Positions 8,164-30,900 of a DNA stretch of 64,000 nt are shown here, piece after piece. The stretch comes from a virus (lineage: Duplodnaviria > Caudoviricetes). The notes beneath the pieces were generated by a model. The model made no database searches, was not told the origin of the DNA, and worked only from the letters and a program-made list of their open reading frames with translations. The stretch covers positions 1-64,000 of IMG/VR virus record IMGVR_UViG_3300010944_000263, one strand, 5' to 3'. Positions within the stretch are counted from its first letter, which is position 1. Each line of letters opens with the position of its first letter. The position numbers were made by a program, and so were the translations under genes.

Positions 8164-9030
8164 CTAAAAAAGTTGCATTAAGTCCAACCACAAACCACCC
8201 TTGGACAAAAGCTCTCGCATGTCCTTGTACGGTTCAGGAACCAACACCCAAGAGGCGTTAAGTTCCGAAGCCACCTTCTTCGCACCAAACAGACCTGGCC
8301 AACAAAAGGCACAGCCGCGACACGTCTTCAAGCAACTCGGAACAGATCCCCGACGCTCCGGAGCCTCATCGCGCTCGCCCACCACAATCACCTTTTTGGT
8401 AATGTTGCTCTTTTCGATCATCTTCTTGATGTACTCAGCTCCATGCGTATTGCTCGCTCGACCGATGGCGCAAAGACCAGCCGACTCGCACGCAGCCACA
8501 TCGGAACCACCTTCGACAATCCAAAGAGGACCAGGACGACTCCACCACTCAGGAGAGTAGAACACACCGGTCGAACCACCTTGATTTGTTCTTTTCGATC
8601 CATCCTTGTATCGACGCACGAAACCGATGCACTTGCCGTTGCTGTCTCGGCTCGGCCAGCTAGAAAACTCTGCCTTGTTCCACTCGTCCCATCCGATTCC
8701 AACCCGAAGCGACTCTAACGAATCGACACTAACCGAAAGAGAATCGGCTACCGCGCATCGCTTTGCATGAGCCATAGGATGCTCAAACATTGCTTTGCAT
8801 TCTTTTGTCCAGTCAGGTTTCTTTTTAACAGGCTCCTTTTCTGGCAACGGTGGCAATGGATTCTCAAGCCGATGAATCCACCCCATACCTCCGTCTCGAC
8901 CTGTCGCGGGCTTGTCCGATTCAACACGCATACATCGAACTGCAGTGCCATCGGAAGTCCTGCCGCAGTAGTCAGGCTTGCCGCACACTGGACACGGCTC
9001 ATGTCGCGACACTCTCTCCCAGGTGCTCAT
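8164..9030 (-). CDS. DNA primase-like protein (Zn-binding domain + TOPRIM)
   Basis: PCPVCGKPDYC...RC Zn motif; IVEGGSDV and VVGERD TOPRIM-like motifs; adjacent to the helicase. Confidence 0.75.
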   Translation of the reverse strand: MSTWERVSRHEPCPVCGKPDYCGRTSDGTAVRCMRVESDKPATGRDGGMGWIHRLENPLPPLPEKEPVKKKPDWTKECKAMFEHPMAHAKRCAVADSLSVSVDSLESLRVGIGWDEWNKAEFSSWPSRDSNGKCIGFVRRYKDGSKRTNQGGSTGVFYSPEWWSRPGPLWIVEGGSDVAACESAGLCAIGRASNTHGAEYIKKMIEKSNITKKVIVVGERDEAPERRGSVPSCLKTCRGCAFCWPGLFGAKKVASELNASWVLVPEPYKDMRELLSKGGLWLDLMQLF

Positions 9031-9365
9031 GCGTGCTCTCGCTCGTCGTACCAGCTACTAGCGGCATCCTGCAAGCATTGCTCCTCGTACCTGTCGTGCC
9101 AATCATTTTCGATGATTGCCTCGGCTATCTTGTCCAGCGCATCCCAAGCCCAATGGTCGGTCCTGTGTCGCGTTTCCTCGCCAACTCTCCATACGGTGAC
9201 GTTGATAAAAGTCCACTCGGCAGAAGAGGACCATCCAGGGTATCCGCTTCCATCTGGATAATACCGCACCATCGGCTCGCATGGATGAAAGTCGTACTTT
9301 ACCTCCACTTCGAGACTGCTATCGAAACCAAGCTCTTCAAGGATTATCGAGATTGTCCCGCTCAT
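9027..9365 (-). CDS. Hypothetical protein
   Basis: 112-aa ORF coupled on both sides. Confidence 0.7.
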   Translation of the reverse strand: MSGTISIILEELGFDSSLEVEVKYDFHPCEPMVRYYPDGSGYPGWSSSAEWTFINVTVWRVGEETRHRTDHWAWDALDKIAEAIIENDWHDRYEEQCLQDAASSWYDEREHA

Positions 9366-12133
9366 TTCCTCACCCTGTATGGATTGCCTTCGTCGCTGTA
9401 ATCGTTCACGGTAAAGCCGTAGGTATCTCGCACCTTTCGTTTGCTGTCGGGATGACCATACGGAATCATCTTGTACTTTCTTCCAGCCACTTCGACTGAA
9501 TCAGGAACTCGGAAATCGGTACCTTGCTGTTCCGCTATCTTCTTGGCGATGTACCACGCCTGCCCCCAAGTTCCTCCAATATGCCCAGCCTTGAAAAGTG
9601 CAATCAGCATTATCTCCTCGGAAGTCCGAAGTTTCTTCTCCGTCTTTACGTTCGACTTCTTAATCTCCCGAAGCTCACCACCAGTGAACTCTAACCCTTG
9701 CGACTTGCGCTCTCTAGCTGTCGGCTCATACCCGCATTGCCGGCACTTTCCGCCGCGATAGATAGCATTGCAATTCGGGCAATTGATTGTCGCTCTTGGC
9801 TCATGCGTCTTTGCTGGTCGCTCTCCCCATTCGAGAGTCCACGCAATGTCATCGTCAAAGAATCCATGCTTGCTGATATTGGCGGCATGATCCAGCACAA
9901 TGCAATCAGGAACATCGGGATGCACGCGGCTTCCTCGTCCGACCATCTGGCGATAACGAACAACGCTCCCGATTGCTGTACACAACTGCACGCATCCCAC
10001 ACGAGGAATGTCGGTGCCTCGCTCGATAACGCCAACGTTGCAAATGTACTGAATCTCTCCGCTGTTCAATCGCTGAAACAATGACTTTCGCTCTTCATCA
10101 TCTGTCTCGCCATCGACATAGTGAGCATCAATTCCATTCTTGCGAAGAATCTCCATCGCCTCGTACGCATGGGATCGACGCGGGAAGAACCCAACTGTAG
10201 CTCTTCCTTCCGCCAATCGCTTCCAATCCTTCACCAAATCGCCAGCGAGCCCGTCCATCGCTGCTGCCACACTGTCCTCGGTGTAGTCATCACCACGCTT
10301 TACAAGCAGGTTCAGCTTCCCCTGGGTCGCTTGGAAGTAACGGAACGGAGACAGATACCCATTCTCAATCAACCACGACGGAGATGGACCCATCACAATC
10401 TTACTGAAGACCTTGTTCAACTCTCGGTGCTGCGGAGTAGCAGACAGCCCAAGAATAAAAGGCGGCTTCAATCCTAACTCGGCTCGCTTCTTGTTGTGCG
10501 CCACAAGGAATGTTCTGAACTTCGCAACGTGGCTATGGCAATTATGAACCAGAAGATTGTTTGCAAAAAAACAGTGGCTCTTTTCTACTTCTATGTCGAA
10601 CACTTCCGTCTGGCTTGCGGGAACGATTTTCATCACACGACACCAACTTGTATCGCATACATTCTGGGACGTACTTCGAAATCCGACGACCAATCTCAAG
10701 TTGCGTCCAGCTTGCGATTCCGATGAAATATGCGTCCTTTGACCTGTTTTTGTAGACAGAAGCCTTTCCGATGTTGTCACAAAACCAGTCTGCAATAACT
10801 TCGTTTTCCTTTTTAGAAAAACCTTCCGTGTGAAGAAGCAGCGATTTTTTTGTTGCTGATCCATCATCACATATCCACCACGCGAGCCCAATATCCCCAA
10901 TCGCATCGAGCCATTTTCTGGACACCACTTTTTTCCCTCGACGCTTAACCAGTTTTTCGATTTCAATAAGCGATTGATTGCATGAAGTGACAGTGACAAC
11001 AGACTGCTCACCCCAGCCTTCGTTATCAACAACTTTGGTTTTTGCAGCCAATCTATGCAAGAATTTCGCTTTGTGAATTGCCCACTCTTTTTGAACAAGC
11101 CCATGAGTGCTGCTAAGTCTCGGAGATTTTGACCTGCTGTTTGGATATGTGATCGAAGAGTCCCCAAGCAATGTCCCAAGAATCGCCTGCCTTTCAAGAA
11201 CAGTAAGCTGAAGCATTTGATTAGTGCTACAGTTTTCGTGTCCGTCGCAATACTGTTTGTATAAGGGCATCGCACCGTATGCGATCCATGAGTCAGCTGT
11301 CTCAAATCCAAGTCTAGTCCTAACACCACAGCCGCATTTGCAAAAAGGAGCGGCTGCATTGAGTTCTCCCCAGAGCTTAACAAAGTGCTCTTTTTTTCCG
11401 AGTGATTTATGCCCCCAACAAAACAGCTTTCCTGTTCTAGGCTTTCTTCCACACCCGCATAAGCAAGTATCTCGTCTGTAGGCAATACGTACTGCGCTTG
11501 TAGCCATCCTCGCCTCGTATAAAGCTCGTGATCTGGAGTGCATCGCACTTTTCCTGCGTGCGTATGTATCTCTAGTGTAGTTTTTGTCCCGCTATGCTTC
11601 CAGTTCAAAACACTAGCAAAATGAACTCCTTTTTCTTCGCTGTATGATCTCACTGTCTTAGGTTTTCGATACGGAACTTGATCTATTCTCATCGCTCCAA
11701 GTTCTGTCTCTATAATCGAATCCCCAGAAACGCATTCATCAAACACAAGAAAGTCGTAGGTGAAATCGTTTCGATACGTTCCTTTCTCAACGTACCAACT
11801 GTTCTTGGTATCGATTGAAGCCACTTGCAAATCGCATCCTGGCAACGTGTCAACTCCAGACATGATGACACCATGCGGCAATCGAGGGTGTTCATCGAAC
11901 GACGCGCTGGCATTCTCGACGAGCCCGCGACGATGAACCATGAAAGCTGCCTTTCCGCTTTCACCATCTTTCTTTTCGCGATTCAAATACAAGCCAAGCA
12001 TGTGCTTCGCACACCGAGTCTTGCCCGCACCTGGAGGCACACAAAAAATCACGCTTCGATACTTTGCTATCTCTCGCCTGATGTTTGCGACACATTCCTG
12101 CTGGTATGGACGAAGCGTAGGAATCTCAATCAT
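9362..12133 (-). CDS. SF2 DExH helicase (RadD/UvsW-like) with C-terminal Zn ribbon, interrupted by an intein
   Basis: LRPYQ; PPGAGKT; motif II DE|CH split by the intein; GLSATP; YRQMVGRGSR; CPNC...CRQCG. Confidence 0.92.
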   Translation of the reverse strand: MIEIPTLRPYQQECVANIRREIAKYRSVIFCVPPGAGKTRCAKHMLGLYLNREKKDGESGKAAFMVHRRGLVENASASFDEHPRLPHGVIMSGVDTLPGCDLQVASIDTKNSWYVEKGTYRNDFTYDFLVFDECVSGDSIIETELGAMRIDQVPYRKPKTVRSYSEEKGVHFASVLNWKHSGTKTTLEIHTHAGKVRCTPDHELYTRRGWLQAQYVLPTDEILAYAGVEESLEQESCFVGGINHSEKKSTLLSSGENSMQPLLFANAAVVLGLDLDLRQLTHGSHTVRCPYTNSIATDTKTVALIKCFSLLFLKGRRFLGHCLGTLRSHIQTAGQNLRDLAALMGLFKKSGQFTKRNSCIDWLQKPKLLITKAGVSSLLSLSLHAINRLLKSKNWLSVEGKKWCPENGSMRLGILGSRGGYVMMDQQQKNRCFFTRKVFLKRKTKLLQTGFVTTSERLLSTKTGQRTHISSESQAGRNLRLVVGFRSTSQNVCDTSWCRVMKIVPASQTEVFDIEVEKSHCFFANNLLVHNCHSHVAKFRTFLVAHNKKRAELGLKPPFILGLSATPQHRELNKVFSKIVMGPSPSWLIENGYLSPFRYFQATQGKLNLLVKRGDDYTEDSVAAAMDGLAGDLVKDWKRLAEGRATVGFFPRRSHAYEAMEILRKNGIDAHYVDGETDDEERKSLFQRLNSGEIQYICNVGVIERGTDIPRVGCVQLCTAIGSVVRYRQMVGRGSRVHPDVPDCIVLDHAANISKHGFFDDDIAWTLEWGERPAKTHEPRATINCPNCNAIYRGGKCRQCGYEPTARERKSQGLEFTGGELREIKKSNVKTEKKLRTSEEIMLIALFKAGHIGGTWGQAWYIAKKIAEQQGTDFRVPDSVEVAGRKYKMIPYGHPDSKRKVRDTYGFTVNDYSDEGNPYRVRK
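10541..11734 (-). mobile_element. Intein (398 aa) inserted in the helicase DECH motif
   Basis: Starts with Cys (CVSGDS); block B TPDHELYTRRGW; block F VFDIEVEKSHCFFAN; ends LVHN followed by extein Cys; removal restores FDE-CHSH. Confidence 0.93.
10542..11507 (-). CDS. LAGLIDADG homing endonuclease (321 aa) in an alternative frame inside the intein
   Basis: QAILGTLLGDSSI and LAWWICDDGS LAGLIDADG helices; two N-terminal CxCGCG modules; GAGGCGAGG before ATG 11507 (upstream in-frame ATG at 11543). Confidence 0.88.
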   Translation of the reverse strand: MATSAVRIAYRRDTCLCGCGRKPRTGKLFCWGHKSLGKKEHFVKLWGELNAAAPFCKCGCGVRTRLGFETADSWIAYGAMPLYKQYCDGHENCSTNQMLQLTVLERQAILGTLLGDSSITYPNSRSKSPRLSSTHGLVQKEWAIHKAKFLHRLAAKTKVVDNEGWGEQSVVTVTSCNQSLIEIEKLVKRRGKKVVSRKWLDAIGDIGLAWWICDDGSATKKSLLLHTEGFSKKENEVIADWFCDNIGKASVYKNRSKDAYFIGIASWTQLEIGRRISKYVPECMRYKLVSCDENRSRKPDGSVRHRSRKEPLFFCKQSSGS

Positions 12134-12894
12134 TTCTTACTCCACAACTCGACACCCTGCACCAGCTTGACCAGCTTCTCTCGCTCACGACTGTTTGGTA
12201 CCAACTCGTGGTAATCATCGATTGCTCGAACTAACTTATCGCGGTGCTGATTCGCAATGCTCGCTGCTTTCTTCGCCATATCTTCAACGCTAAGCGGCTT
12301 GTTAATTGCCTTCTCCAGATTCTTGCTGTCTCCCTTTGCCTTTCTGCCTACCTTCTTCTGCTCTGGCTTCGGCATCTCGACCAGCTTTTCCAACGCTGGC
12401 TGCGTCAAGTCGACCGCCGCTGCTTGAACGGAGTTATCGACCTGCTCGATCATCTCGGCGCGAACAACGTCTCGATACACCTGCCTTTCAGACACCTCGG
12501 ACTCTTCCGCTACCTTCTGAACAGCCGAACGTTTGTTCTCTCCTTGACTCATGCGGTACTTCACTCTCTCCGCTCGCAGTTTCGACTGAGCCCCCGGAGT
12601 TAGGTTTCGCTGGCTGATTGCATCTCGCTTAATACGGTCCTCAACTTCCTCCAGCGTCTCGGCGTCCTGATAGACCTGAATCGTCTCAAACGGCAGCTTG
12701 TTCTTCTTGCACAACTTGAATCGATGATGCCCATCGACAAGTAAATCTCCCCACAACCAAAGCGGGCTGTACGCTCTCCCTTCCTCCAATAGCGATTCTT
12801 CCAGTCCCTTGAGCTGCTCGCTATCGAGAGGAGGAATCAACGCTTCGATCCGCTCATCTACTCGCACTTTGCCGTTAAACGCTTTTTTGACCAT
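12130..12894 (-). CDS. ParB/Srx-like N-terminal domain protein with HTH
   Basis: LIPPL...LEESLLEEG...PLWLWGDLLVDGHHRF; HTH-like VQKVAEESEVSERQVYRDV; GAGGAG SD before ATG 12894. Confidence 0.75.
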   Translation of the reverse strand: MVKKAFNGKVRVDERIEALIPPLDSEQLKGLEESLLEEGRAYSPLWLWGDLLVDGHHRFKLCKKNKLPFETIQVYQDAETLEEVEDRIKRDAISQRNLTPGAQSKLRAERVKYRMSQGENKRSAVQKVAEESEVSERQVYRDVVRAEMIEQVDNSVQAAAVDLTQPALEKLVEMPKPEQKKVGRKAKGDSKNLEKAINKPLSVEDMAKKAASIANQHRDKLVRAIDDYHELVPNSREREKLVKLVQGVELWSKK

Positions 12895-24900: not shown

Positions 24901-27900
24901 TCTTCCATCAGACGACGCTTAATCTCCTTACCCAAGTTGAAAATCTTGACGTTTTCAGTGATAGGCTTTCCATCGTTGTCTCTTCCAACAACCCGCTTTG
25001 CAGAATCTTTATGCCCCATCTCCATGAATATCATCTGCGTGGCTTTAGGATGCGAATAGTAGTAATCCATCGCATTCACAAGCATCTTGTTGATCTTCAA
25101 CCTTGGATCGCGAGGATCCACAAGACTAGCATCTACCCCATCCATCAAGCGAGGATCAAGAGCCAGCTTCACGCCTTCGCTATTGAGAACCAAAGGCATG
25201 TACTCTCTTGTTCGAAGAAGCTCAAACTTCGCTTTGCCTGTTGCTTGCTTAAGCGTCCTGTACCGCTCCTTTAAGTTTTCGCTCATCAGCTTTTGAATCG
25301 GCATCATCTGCAGCGTTTCGTTATGCACTTCCTTGTATGGACGACCGACAACAGGCTCTCCCTCTTCAATTCTTCCATCTTTTGTTGGTCGCGGAACAAA
25401 CTCCGGCATGTCGCTCCCGAAAACCGTATCCATGTACTGTCCGATAGATGCTCGCAATTCCGGAAGGTTTACAAAGCTAGTTAGGCGCACAAACTCTTCG
25501 TACGTTCCGCCAACAGACAGTTCGTCGCTCGTTTCCGCAGTAGCAAACGTGTTGAACCATCCATCCCAATCCTTTACTCCAACTGCTTGCATTTCATCAG
25601 GCATGATGAATCGCTGCATGTTATAGATTTCATTCAAAGTGTTTGTGACTGGAGTTCCGGTAAACAAAAACACTCCCCGTCCATTTTGCGTCCCGCGAAT
25701 GTAGTCAGACAGAAGCATTAGTGAATTGCCAATGTTACTCGACTGCTTATTCAGCCCCTTTACTTGCTGACGAGTAGCAATAGGAATTTTTTTGAAAATA
25801 TGCGCCTCGTCGACCATGAGCATATCAACACCCATGTCTTCAATGAAAATAGTAGATTCGCTAGCGGAATCCGCCTGAGCTTCTCGAATGCGCTCTCGCA
25901 AACGGAGGCGTTCCTTAACAAGCTCTTTCGCGGTTCTTTGCTTGAGCTTCTTCAAATCGTCGTCGTCTATGTTGTCTAAGTTCTCTGGCATACTGCCTTT
26001 GAACGGACTGTCGTCTTCATTGAAAGCCTCAAGCGCTGCAGCTTCCAATTGATCCATTTGCTCTTGAAGAAGCTTTTCAAGCGTCTCAGGGCGCATCTTC
26101 AGCTTATCAACAAGCGAGTGTGGAATCACAATCAAATCCCAATCCTCGGTAGCGATAGAAGCCATTGCCTGACCTTTATTCTTCGAGTCGAGATTGTCAA
26201 CATAAAGAATCTTGGCTCCAGGATAGGCTTCCTGTGCTTCTCTATACACCGCTTGCGAGTTTGCATTATGCGCAAACAACACAGGCTTGTTGGCTAAGCG
26301 AAGCCGGCGAGACTCTATTGCCAAGGCTGCCATAGTAAGCGTCTTGCCTGTACCGACCTCGTGCGCGTACAGCCCTTTCCCTGAAACAATTCCACGCCAA
26401 ACAGCCGCTTCTTGGTGCTTTCGAAGCGAAAAAGGATCTTCTCCCCTCTGTAACGCAAGACCTTCAAACAGCAAAGGAACCTTTACTTTGTTCCAATCTG
26501 GAGTTGCCACAGATCGGTGATCTTCGTTGTACGCTTGAGACAGCCTTGCAATTCGGTCGGGAGTTTGCCAAATCCAATCCTTGAACTTGTCTTTCAATTC
26601 GTCAATCTTGGCGTTAGCTTCAAACGTCGCCTCTTCGTCCTTGACGTTGTTTCCTTCTGCATCTTTATAGAAAACGGAAACACGACCGTTATTCATTGCC
26701 GCAGAAACCATCTTCGAAAACGGAACTTCCATGTGTCCGTGAGTCACAACTGCTGGAGAATTGTTTACCGATCCAGCGAAGTCTACCTTCCACCCTCGAA
26801 TAGCCTTTAGCACTCTGGTGTTTTTCGGATCCTCTCCCAATAGGTCAGCAACAAACTGCGTGTAATCCTCCGCTGGAATCCAGGGAGCGCCCATGCTTAC
26901 TTGAATTTGGTTGTAAACAAGAGGCTCTGGCATGACAGATTTTGCCGCTTCGATAGATCGCTCGAGCCCATTCACGCCTTCGTTCTTCGCAGCTTCGAGC
27001 TGACGAATCTTTCTTGCCATATTCCCTGAGAGGAATACATCCGCAGCGTCATATAGGTCTTCGCCAGTCTTGTAGATCAACCCTTCTTTCTCAAGAACAG
27101 CAATCACGTCAGCTTTCGGCATCTGCGCAGACTTCGCAACAGCATCCCAGTCAATATCCACGGAGTTGTTACGAGCCAATGCGAAAGCATCGATAGGGTT
27201 CAGTTTTTCGTTTACGCGAGGTGGCTGACGAACAGTCGTCTTGGTAAAAACAGGACGCTTCTCGTACTCTCCGTTCGCTGTTTTCATCTCCAAAGACGCT
27301 ACCGCGTTAGCTATCGCATCGCCAGAAGCCTTGAGATAACCGATAGCCTTACTTTCGGTAATTGGACCGTATTTGCCTATGAACGCATCGTAAAACTGAT
27401 TGAGCTGCTTTCGCTGCTCAGCCGCATCCTCACCCCTGCCCTGCAATTCAAGCACTTGCTCAAGAGAGTCGCGAACTTTAAGAAGCGAAACCATCTCGTC
27501 ACGAATCTTTTTGACAGTCTCTGGCTTGCTCCCAGCGCGGTACCAATTGACGTACTCTTTGAGAGGCATCAACTGCTCGCCCTTGGCAATGTACAGTTCA
27601 TCACCCTGATGAATAACTGTGTTCTGCCGAAGTTTCTTTTCGTTTGCTCTCTCTCTTCCTTCGTTCGCTGTCCTTTCAGTATTCAAAATGTTTTCAGGGA
27701 CTGACTCGATCGCTTTCTGCCATCTTTCAGCCAAGTCAGAAGGCTTGTCGACAATCATGCCAGGACGACCACTCGTTGTGCCGTTACCATAGTTGATCGT
27801 CCCCAATACGTTTTCTGGGTGCAGCTTCCAGTAGTTATTCACATCTACCTTTTGCCCAGACGGTGTATCCATCTCGATAACATCAATCCACTCCTGATTA

Positions 27901-30900
27901 ACAGAAGATGGACTCTCTCCATCTTTTCGCTTACGAATGATAATCAAGTCCGCAACAACCTTCGTCTTGGCATATCGTTCAAACGCACCAGTTGGGAATC
28001 GGAACGCTGCAATCAAGTCGCCTCTATCAGACAACTGTTTTCGAAGCAGCTTAGCCTCGTCCTTGCCGTCCATCGTCATATTCGAAGTCACGAACGCCAT
28101 GATCCCACCCGGCTTTGTCTGATCGATAGCCTTGCGGAAAAAGTAGTTGTGAATCGAGTACGGCATTCGATACATTCGATCGTGAATCTTGTAGTTACCG
28201 AACGGGACGTTAGTAGCCGTTACGTCATAGAAATCATTTGGCGTCCTGCTATCCTGATACCCCTTCTGTTGAACGTTGATTTGTGGATAGAGCATCTTTG
28301 CCATGCGAGCGGTAGCTTTATCCAACTCGATAGCAGTAAAGTTAGTTCGATCCATGATGTCGCGAGGCATCATGGCTGCGAAATTACCGATACCAAACGA
28401 TGGCTCAAGGAACCTACCACCCCTGAACCCCATCCTTCTAAGCATCTCCCACATGCCTACAACAACTTCTGGATCAGTATAGTGCGCGTTGGGAATCGAC
28501 TCCTGGGCTGATCGCCACTCTTCTTCACCTAAATGTTCTCGAAGCCATTCATTCTCGGACTCCCAATCCTTCTTCACCTTCGGATTGTTCCAGTTTCCTT
28601 GGAAGAGCTCTTGTCCAAATGCACCCCACCCAATGTATGAAGCAATCGTTTCCAATTCTTCCTGAGTAGGCGCACGTCCAGACTCTTCAAGTTCTTGCGA
28701 TAGCTCCAATGCACGAACGTTCCGAGCAAACTTGTCTTTGAGACCGCGACCAAGAATGATGTCAGGGTTAGTCAGATGAAAGTTTGGACGAGATGATTTT
28801 GGAGCTAGGTCTATTCCTGCTCCATCTCCTGGCTTGGTGAATCCATCTCCTCCGGTTTCTCCGGATCCAACATCAACACCTCCCGGCACATCAGTTCCGC
28901 TTCCGACATTGCCAACTTCTCTTCCGTCACCAGTCGCATCACGTCCTGATTGAACCGACTCCGCGTTACTATCGCGTAATCCTCCAGAATCCCTTGCTCC
29001 TCCAGCCTTTTCACCATTTGCGGGCTGTTCTCCCTCCAGTGTTCCAGAAGTTGCTGCACTTCCGGATTTTTCTCGGTCAGCGTTGCTTCTGCCAGTTCTT
29101 TCTTGATCTGGCTCACCCATCTCTGTTCTAGTACCATCTGCTTTCTCTCCTAAGTAATCAATCACGCTTATTGCAGGGTCAGAAACAATTTTCTGTCTTT
29201 CAAGAGCTCTCCATCCAGCTTCCATGTACGGCGCAAACTCTCTTGCGAAGTCGCTTCCAAAGTTTTCAACAATCGCATCTACATACGCACCAAACGTGTC
29301 TTTGCCTGCACGAACGTAAAGCAAGGAAACCTGAACAATCTTTTTAAGGCTATCCCTGTCTATCGTTTCAGCAGGAATGCTTTGAAGCAAAACATCAGGA
29401 TCCGGTTTTTGAGCCTTCAAAGAACGAATATCAGAAGCAAACTGCTTCATCGCATCGTTAGCCGCCTTCAACGCAGCAGCCTTTGCTGCCGCTTCAGTAT
29501 CGATCGGCTCTTTTTTAGGTCGTTTCTTCCCTGTCAGCTTCTCTCCTAATGGTTTCTTAGCTGCTGGAGCCTTGCCGTCCTTACGTCCAGTCCTTTTCTT
29601 TGGCTTCTCTTCCGCCAGTATCTCAGCAAGGACATCATCTGCCGCATCATCCAGCGTAAGTACCCTAGTCGACTGCGATACAGGGATATCATTTAGTGGA
29701 GGATCAATTACGCTCTTGATTGCTTCTGGCAATGACTCAAAAGTCTGATTCATGTCACTGAACAAAGACGCAGTCTTTTCACCGATTCCAAGAGCTCCAA
29801 TAAGATCCTTCATCGCGTTTCGGAACTTCGTTGGCGACATCTCGTATAGAGCATGAACCAACCCCGCAGCCGAGTAATTGCGATACCCAGGACCAGCGAT
29901 CAATTGTTGCTGGTCCATGAAATAGCTCTGAAGCGAACCGCCTGCTTTTCTATCTGCAACGTATCCGTCGTATGCTTGAACGGCTTCAAGCAAGTCACTA
30001 AGCAACTGCTTGCCATGCTTCTTGTCTGCCATGCCTTTCGCTAAAGGACCAATTGCAGACAGAACCTTTTGTTTCACTGACGGCGCAGCATCTCCTAAGA
30101 CAGTCGCATCTGGAATCGCCTTCGCTGTCAATAACTGTTCTATTGCTGACTTTCCATCTGAATTCAAATCGCTCGTAACTGGATCGACATAACGGTCGGT
30201 CTGCTTAGTGGTCCACGCACCATCCTTCACCAAAGCTCGAACAATGCGATCGGCGTGCTTTGGGTTAGCCATTGCGTCACGAAGACTCAACGTGTCATCA
30301 GACGCAAGAATGCCAGCAATCAAATCAACAGTACCTTCGCTAACTCGCTTAGCTTGCGACACAGCATCCGTCGCCTGTGACTTAGAAGCTGAAAGAGCCT
30401 CGTTGAGCAACGACGAAATGGTAGTCTTGTCAAACACCTCATCTAGCACTCGAACAATAACAGGCTCTTTTAGCTTCCCAATATCCTTTTGGTCGATACC
30501 AAACTTCTCTGCCTCGGATTGTATATGCGACTTGAGTCGTGCAGCTTGCTTTCCAGAGTATGCCAACTGCATTCCCATTGAACGTGCGTTACCACCAAGA
30601 ACGGCACCGAACTCATCTAAGATAGGTGGACCATCGATAGGAGACTGCGTATCAGACGTTAACAGACTTACCTTGTCCGGAAGAACTTTCGATATTTTCT
30701 CGACAGTCTCTCGAGAGTCCGCACCTTGCTTTGGATCGTGATATGGACGTTCGTTTTCTAAAGCCCCTTCGTTCCTGGCAAAGTTGCGACGCGCGTCATG
30801 AGACGGAATTAGCTTTTCGGCTTCGATTGCGTAGTATGTTGCTTTTCGAGTCTTTCCATCCGCTGTAATAACTGCCGTGGACTTTCCTTTGACACCAAAC

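Follow-up and report, generated by a model that had tools for sequence, protein, structure and literature searches.

A LAGLIDADG endonuclease gene nested out of frame in the intein of a phage helicase, a relative of the cyanobacterial DnaX intein

Inteins whose homing endonuclease is encoded in a reading frame other than that of the host protein are rare, and the closest described case is the intein of cyanobacterial dnaX, the gene for the gamma/tau subunit of DNA polymerase III. According to a recent preprint, this intein carries a LAGLIDADG endonuclease encoded by an open reading frame (ORF) of the +2 frame, its in-frame middle is disordered, Shine-Dalgarno motifs lie upstream of the endonuclease gene and omega depends on the frame (Phillips, DeSimone & Gogarten, bioRxiv 10.64898/2026.09.14.751524). 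The same text credits Gorbalenya (1998, 'Non-canonical inteins') with the first proposal; its authors could trace no source of the dnaX endonuclease, and it makes no mention of helicases (10.64898/2026.09.14.751524). An earlier survey had met with PolIII-gamma inteins only in cyanobacteria, at the Walker B motif. Here we describe a homologous element in a superfamily 2 (SF2) helicase gene of the virus record IMGVR_UViG_3300010944_000263 (Caudoviricetes), of which positions 1 to 64,000 were analysed (the window). The locus is very probably a mobile, dual-coding, 'non-canonical' intein of the DnaX type, situated in the replication-module helicase of a 73-kb wastewater phage. The initial annotation of the window had taken this layout to be reported only in a few phages, which does not hold, since the cyanobacterial DnaX intein already has it and is homologous.

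Several other systems share parts of this arrangement. In the non-canonical inteins of actinobacteriophages, a separate endonuclease is likewise encoded in an overlapping frame, the in-frame middle of the intein is unstructured and the element is still mobile; however, the endonuclease of the same-strand out-of-frame case is endonuclease VII-like, the LAGLIDADG cases are antisense, and the hosts are polymerase, minor capsid, terminase and thymidylate synthase genes rather than this helicase (Gosselin, Arsenault & Gogarten, bioRxiv 10.1101/2025.01.02.630785). The 'fractured genes' of Dassa et al. (2009, PMC2677866) have a separately translated endonuclease gene between two splicing halves, a split layout that relatives of the window element show in the phages Ymer and AN_ECEAS; in the window, in contrast, the host frame is continuous, as expected for splicing in cis, and the endonuclease gene overlaps it completely. 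The split inteins of Dassa carried VSR-like endonucleases, according to the 2025 preprint (10.1101/2025.01.02.630785). Finally, the ShiLan insertion in phage methylases is also in frame and stop-free and hides an out-of-frame endonuclease, but it is described as no identifiable intein, with an endonuclease of the HNH type (PMC11855218).

An endonuclease gene inside a helicase intein

In the helicase ORF, Pfam matches to ResIII and Helicase_C lie on either side of a match to Intein_splicing (PF14890; 45.8 bits vs a cut-off of 35.8, residues 160-531 of the ORF). The intein splits helicase motif II as DE|CH; it starts with Cys, ends with His-Asn and is followed by Cys+1. Across 18 aligned inteins C1, T66, H69, H397 and N398 were invariant, including the T-x-x-H of block B, and Cys+1 was found in all. 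The intein was modelled with AlphaFold2 (AF2) from the 18 aligned relatives: amino acids (aa) 1-94 and 360-398 were all-beta with a predicted local distance difference test score (pLDDT) of ~90, as expected for a Hint fold formed by these two ends, whereas aa 95-359 scored below 50. The G+C fraction of the intein is 0.43-0.47 vs ~0.52 in its flanks. The intact catalytic residues, together with the selection for an open precursor frame described below, suggest that the intein is spliced out. Pfam returned no LAGLIDADG match in the helicase frame, whose centre is predicted to be unfolded, which sets the locus apart from a canonical intein with an in-frame endonuclease between blocks B and F; nor is it a naturally split intein or fractured gene, the helicase being a single 923-aa ORF with 0 stops.

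The endonuclease ORF sits wholly within the intein, on the same strand and without interruption of the host frame (Table 1). Its product matches LAGLIDADG_2 (PF03161; 86.8 bits vs a cut-off of 25) over profile positions 1-161 of 168, belongs to PHROG 11023 ('homing endonuclease with LAGLIDADG motif') and has 37 database homologues, mostly of ~320 aa and called as separate genes. In 24 homologues, residues D116, D214 and D215 of the two LAGLIDADG motifs (321-aa numbering) were invariant, as were the Cys of both N-terminal repeats, with their His nearly so; these repeats may bind zinc and DNA. A model built by AF2 with the 24 aligned homologues (mean pLDDT 86.5) had as its best Foldseek matches in the Protein Data Bank I-WcaI (6X1J, E 4e-13) and I-SceI (1R7M, E 7e-12), at a template modelling (TM) score of 0.73-0.75 on the target, and was confidently predicted as a monomeric pseudo-dimeric alpha-beta-beta-alpha-beta-beta-alpha fold. 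The window protein thus resembles these monomeric double-motif intron endonucleases in fold and in both Asp-bearing motifs, but is only ~22% identical to them, is nested in an intein and has an extra ~100-aa Cys/His-rich extension at its N terminus.

These results agree with the initial annotation, which had placed a 398-aa intein of the form Cys...His-Asn|Cys, splitting DE-CH, at 10541-11734, with a central stretch resembling no protein domain and an intact 321-aa LAGLIDADG endonuclease in the +2 frame. The coordinates proved exact on the translation, profile searches of the two frames gave Intein_splicing in the helicase frame and LAGLIDADG_2 in the +2 frame, and an earlier ATG would lengthen the endonuclease to 333 aa.

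Table 1. Coordinates of the helicase gene, its intein and the nested endonuclease gene, in window positions
Feature	Position	Strand	Remarks
SF2 helicase precursor gene (ResIII/Helicase_C; PHROG 'DNA helicase')	9362..12133	-	923 aa, single unbroken frame
N-extein, 133 aa	11735..12133	-	ends ...F-D-E of motif II / Walker B
C-extein, 392 aa	9362..10540	-	begins Cys+1-His (CH of DECH)
Class-1 intein, 398 aa (Cys1 ... His-Asn)	10541..11734	-	helicase ORF aa 134-531
N-terminal splicing domain (intein aa 1-94, blocks A and B)	11453..11734	-	pLDDT ~90; helicase frame constrained
'Passenger' linker of the helicase frame (intein aa 95-359)	10658..11452	-	stop-free, unconserved, predicted unfolded
C-terminal splicing domain (intein aa 360-398, blocks F and G)	10541..10657	-	pLDDT ~90
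Homing-endonuclease ORF, +2 frame	10542..11543	-	333 aa (ATG 11543) or 321 aa (ATG 11507)
N-terminal extension of the endonuclease, two copies of the motif C-x-C-G-C-G ... G-H	11238..11465	-	pLDDT 83-90
LAGLIDADG_2 core, two motifs each with a catalytic Asp	10713..11192	-	I-WcaI/I-SceI-like fold
AGGA, candidate Shine-Dalgarno	11552..11555	-	8 nt upstream of first ATG (read directly)
GAGG	11513..11516	-	5 nt upstream of second ATG

Relatives in dnaX, intein-less alleles and split derivatives

At least 13 cyanobacterial (Nostocales) dnaX loci match the endonuclease with 33-35% identity over 288 aa (E 1e-35 to 1e-39), and for two of these (L041, L045) Pfam confirmed the covering ORF as DnaX. The helicase and dnaX members are all inserted at GAYGAR|TGYCAY, which encodes DE|CH or DE|CQ of Walker B (motif II), and they also share the frame offset, the position of the start codon and a related splicing domain. 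The likeness of the DnaX intein to the window element extends to an ATG at aa 76, a disordered in-frame linker, frame-dependent selection and I-WcaI (6X1J) as the best structural match. The two differ in host (dnaX vs a phage SF2 helicase), in length (430 aa vs 398 aa) and in the endonuclease stop, which lies 67 nt earlier in dnaX and is here fused to the terminal His-Asn codons; the window element has a second, upstream ATG. The dnaX members form one tight clade (100/100) in a maximum-likelihood tree built from endonuclease cores, whereas the helicase-nested members, a much more diverse branch, form several deep lineages; the backbone of this tree is unresolved, and therefore no direction of transfer between phage and cyanobacterium can be claimed. 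To the rare DnaX-type kind, the element described here adds a broad phage-helicase branch, a pair of intein-plus and intein-less alleles, and split derivatives in cultured phages.

Relatives at 32% identity or less included canonical in-frame inteins and free-standing genes, as well as a second set, which is nested in the other alternative frame. In this second set (IMG/VR loci L014, L016-L019, L021 and L034), LAGLIDADG_2 genes of ~255-425 aa from stop to stop lie in long host ORFs whose frame is the endonuclease frame +2, and their matches are confined to the LAGLIDADG core. The hosts include a DEAD helicase in L016 and ORFs with weak matches to the GpA_ATPase terminase family in L021 and L034; the host ORF of L014 has Intein_splicing in two stretches together with an in-frame LAGLIDADG_3. 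Two proteins of 531 and 560 aa (P0036 and P0037) are canonical inteins with an in-frame LAGLIDADG_2 domain, 26-28% identical to the endonuclease. Because they add in-frame inteins, the endonuclease family occurs in fused, nested, split-associated and free-standing forms. The record of P0036 also lists PF09414, which we take to be an RNA-ligase family.

A search with the C-extein returned 650 near-length homologues at E 1e-30 or better, and almost all of the best 120 of these 650 were ~523-525 aa long, that is, intein-less (115 full length). The C-extein of the best homologue, the 525-aa intein-less P0038 of a closely related phage, is 99% identical to that of the window. Its contig (L068) aligns on both sides of the intein, with ~96% nucleotide identity near the junction and 87-94% over the neighbouring genes, and is without exactly 10541-11734 (1194 bp). 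The 20-nt flanks are nearly identical apart from the +1 codon, which is ATC (Ile, DEIH) in L068 vs TGC (DE|CH) in the window, and a candidate homing target was defined from the L068 junction. At the variable position of DExH, the 115 full-length homologues without intein had Ile in 33 cases, Cys in 31, Ala in 25, Thr in 24, and Val and Ser in one each; the Cys alleles may be footprints of past occupancy or preferred targets. Many metagenome contigs that hold close relatives (L057-L063 and those of P0003 and P0007; Logan, 1256-1292 nt) consist of the 1194-nt intein with ~31-66 nt of extein per side; such breaks are expected of an assembly graph with k=31 if alleles with and without the intein, or with different flanks, occur side by side.

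Split versions of the element occupy the same DE|C site in Pectobacterium phage Ymer (L066; OP748252.2, 1168-4374) and Escherichia phage AN_ECEAS (L067; PP944860.1, 1279-4413). In this layout an ORF for the N-extein and N-intein and another for the C-intein and C-extein flank a related LAGLIDADG gene in a different frame. The Ymer record annotates three genes (hypothetical protein, homing endonuclease and DNA helicase), and that of AN_ECEAS has the two flanking ORFs only, with the endonuclease ORF covered by no feature. Xanthomonas phage FoX3 (L065 / L010; MT161383.1, gp40, 26902-29268) has the nested, unsplit layout with a 314-aa intein; its record gives a single 'putative DNA helicase' coding sequence and leaves the endonuclease ORF unannotated.

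Selection, expression and rival explanations

We aligned six close inteins (61-71% endonuclease identity) and followed variation by codon position. Over the N-terminal 189 nt, variation was highest at helicase codon position 3 (0.62 vs 0.32 and 0.25), whereas at nt 290-1080 it was highest at helicase position 2, equivalent to position 3 of the endonuclease codons (0.59 vs 0.24 and 0.29); in two short zones where splicing blocks overlap the ends of the endonuclease gene, all three positions were quiet. Pairwise ratios of nonsynonymous to synonymous differences (pN/pS), to be read qualitatively, were 0.25-0.42 in the helicase frame vs 1.1-2.0 in the +2 frame over the N-splicing region, and 1.1-1.5 in the helicase frame vs 0.29-0.34 in the endonuclease frame over the intein centre. 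Amino-acid identity in the centre was 25-39% in the helicase frame vs 61-66% in the endonuclease frame. These data support that the endonuclease frame is under purifying selection in the overlap, and give substance to the early impression that both frames are maintained: the constraint switches from the helicase frame to the endonuclease frame.

Homing-cycle theory predicts that an endonuclease decays after fixation, and the +2 ORF could on these grounds be a non-functional relic of a former invader or frameshifted domain, carried by what is effectively a vertically inherited mini-intein. Such a reading would be compatible with an activity that is so far a prediction from sequence and a model, and with the nearest intein copies in other backgrounds being only 61-71% identical, so that no very recent transfer between backgrounds is documented. 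We nevertheless regard it as unlikely, given the low pN/pS of the endonuclease frame and the catalytic Asp, Cys and His that are invariant in 24 sequences. The fold is predicted confidently, the ORF is intact in all close relatives, and presence of the intein is polymorphic between near-identical helicases.

Two ATG codons could start the endonuclease. The first, at intein aa 64, arises from the Cys-Thr codons of block B and has a family counterpart at aa 62-65, with GGAG-like motifs 8-11 nt upstream in many helicase-type relatives. The second lies within GGATGG, the conserved Gly-Trp codons that follow block B (intein aa 76); almost all relatives have an ATG at aa 74-77, which in every dnaX member lies at aa 76. 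The intein's terminal His-Asn codons, CAT AAT, supply the stop codon, TAA (10544-10542). In the window and in L001, L002 and L012 this stop ends 1 nt short of the intein end, compared with 55-97 nt earlier in the others. With a start in block B and a stop made from the His-Asn codons, the whole gene, signals included, would therefore travel with the intein. A scan of 10300-12400 for promoters and terminators found no terminator and no promoter-like site upstream of the endonuclease ORF; one promoter-like site lay inside the endonuclease gene, fewer than the shuffle expectation, giving no sign of a private promoter. Because the ATG is conserved, Shine-Dalgarno-like purines accompany it and no promoter-like site precedes it, internal initiation on the helicase mRNA appears to be the most economical reading. 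The conserved ATG and the purines likewise favour the early proposal that the endonuclease is made as a separate protein, its translation being predicted.

Alternatively, programmed ribosomal frameshifting could yield a fusion of N-extein, N-intein and endonuclease ending at the TAA. In the window, 16-28 codons upstream of the ATGs are indeed free of stops in the +2 frame, and initiation at either ATG is itself a prediction; still, the ATG is conserved at the same intein position throughout the family and Shine-Dalgarno-like motifs are present, and members of the dnaX clade have the +2 frame closed just 1-8 codons upstream of that ATG. No canonical slippery heptamer was seen beside the ATGs when the sequence was read by eye, no tool having been used for a scan. 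Frameshifting is, on this evidence, quite improbable.

The centre of the helicase frame is most likely a passenger, a view supported by its unconstrained sequence, its predicted unfolded state and its lack of any stop. The linker that the initial annotation had proposed for the spliced intein thus finds support in the pN/pS of 1.1-1.5, the pLDDT below 50 for aa 95-359 and the permanent openness of the frame. That this centre is instead a functional domain of its own (for example a regulatory, disordered one), with a true dual function, would agree with its openness and roughly constant length (~265 aa) in all relatives, but seems very doubtful: the same DNA is far better conserved in the endonuclease frame, pN/pS in the helicase frame exceeds 1, the few conserved columns in the intein alignment mirror the endonuclease motifs, pLDDT is low, and the split relatives do without the linker entirely.

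Over the intein stretch there are 0 stops in the helicase frame and 32 in the third frame, and the +2 frame is open for 349 codons. We computed by exact dynamic programming the probability that the helicase frame is stop-free when the endonuclease protein is fixed and synonymous codons are drawn from codon usage, which gave 1.4e-5 with the usage of neighbouring genes and 5e-4 with the endonuclease ORF's own, already biased, usage. The initial claim that both frames are open beyond chance therefore stands, although its figure of 2e-7 was too small. For 16 relative loci, the probability of an open host frame was 1e-2 to 1e-16 each. Loci of relatives were taken from Logan, Joint Genome Institute (JGI) and European Nucleotide Archive (ENA) assemblies, IMG/VR viral contigs and GTDB genomes; in every fetched locus of at least 33% identity, an endonuclease ORF of ~320-340 aa was fully covered by a much longer ORF, one base ahead of the endonuclease frame and 846-1137 aa long where complete within the locus. 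Both frames remain open in more than 35 diverged relatives. The split-helicase phages provide a natural control, with 13 (Ymer) and 10 (AN_ECEAS) stops over ~200 codons of the former host frame. Dual openness is far beyond chance, because it recurs in every nested relative checked and the split relatives carry 10-13 stops.

Apparent changes of frame are a priori most often due to errors of assembly or sequencing, and in one relative (P0033) an N-splicing domain is fused in frame to a truncated endonuclease, but that two compensating indels have made a canonical in-frame LAGLIDADG intein look out of frame here is scarcely credible, given contigs of four independent studies with 0 indels over 10300-12000 and 0-1 substitutions across the intein, a common frame offset in ~40 diverged loci from different assemblers, the ~10 stops that an unselected helicase frame would hold, as the split relatives do, and the lack of an in-frame endonuclease in any relative of at least 33% identity. 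Two objections foreseen at the outset, compensating indels and homologues that all have an in-frame endonuclease, are answered by these contigs and relatives. P0033 itself (ENA, 359 aa) reads in frame from the N-splicing domain into the endonuclease, skipping the first Cys motif, and derails ahead of the second LAGLIDADG motif, as a decaying copy or an assembly error would. Two further loci may reflect decay or sequencing error: the host ORF of L026 (3700-3937) is derailed near block G, with loss of the His-Asn-Cys end, and the dnaX ORF of L042 (2375-4369) stops at 665 aa near block G.

Several points weigh against a mobile, dual-coding intein. Splicing, separate translation from an internal start, cleavage and homing are deduced from sequence. 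Gene callers chose the second ATG in the closest relatives and the first in others, so that the start is ambiguous; the pN/pS ratios are only qualitative because pS is near saturation; the check for indels used assembled contigs, not raw reads; and the +1 residue of the closest intein-less allele is Ile rather than Cys, which does not distinguish a substrate from a resistant variant.

The element in its phage and in its family

The virus record that holds the window is 72,979 bp long and rated complete by CheckV, and near-identical DNA occurs in wastewater, activated-sludge and freshwater metagenomes. The helicase gene is neighboured by a primase-like gene and by small ORFs that overlap it at their ends; the only label obtained among them was 'DNA primase/helicase' from PHROGs (ORF 8164-9030), and a Pfam search of these neighbours gave zero matches. 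Among GenBank phages, blastn with the helicase gene found no match at the DNA level. In contigs of two other studies, 4 and 7 listed differences from the window are clustered within a 75-nt stretch of the C-extein (10343-10418), next to an identical intein; this is a local mosaic or recombination patch.

We propose that the 1194-bp insert is translated as a 398-aa intein of which only ~94 N-terminal and ~39 C-terminal aa would fold into the Hint domain. The 265 aa between these splicing ends would be a meaningless, probably disordered tether, and the sole property selected in it would be the absence of stop codons, which lets the precursor be completed and spliced into a 525-aa DECH helicase. 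The +2 frame would encode a free-standing, monomeric, double-motif LAGLIDADG endonuclease with a Cys/His-rich, putatively DNA-binding N-terminal extension, most likely produced by ribosomes that initiate internally on the helicase mRNA, at either of the two ATGs in the block-B region. This endonuclease would cut intein-less helicase alleles at ...GAYGAR|NNYCAY... (DE|xH), and repair from an intein-bearing copy would then write the element, together with the Cys+1 codon, into the target.

Inteins whose endonuclease is out of frame are informative on how endonucleases are acquired, by a free-standing gene invading a mini-intein, and on the origin of split inteins. The DnaX-type arrangement is widespread in phage replication helicases, in IMG/VR contigs, metagenome-assembled genomes and cultured phages; in the latter the nested gene has been missed or the locus annotated as three genes. 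It is stable down to ~35% protein identity, and both split derivatives and intein-less alleles that are nearly identical occur beside it. For assays of homing and splicing, the locus offers a concrete intein-bearing and intein-less pair with a defined junction, and its 'nonsense' tether of 265 aa would illustrate, as an example from nature, the amount of unstructured insert that a cis-splicing intein tolerates. Tentatively, and with slightly less than even confidence, we suggest that the nested intein is no chance oddity but one old composite of a splicing domain and a +2-frame LAGLIDADG gene, whose start and stop form part of splicing motifs; it would have spread and diversified among phage SF2 helicases, entered cyanobacterial dnaX a single time via the shared Walker-B DE|CH, and repeatedly relaxed into split inteins once its linker gained stops. 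If this is true, phage helicases would be the missing reservoir of the dnaX endonuclease, and the family would be a living series joining mini-intein invasion, nested coding and fractured genes.

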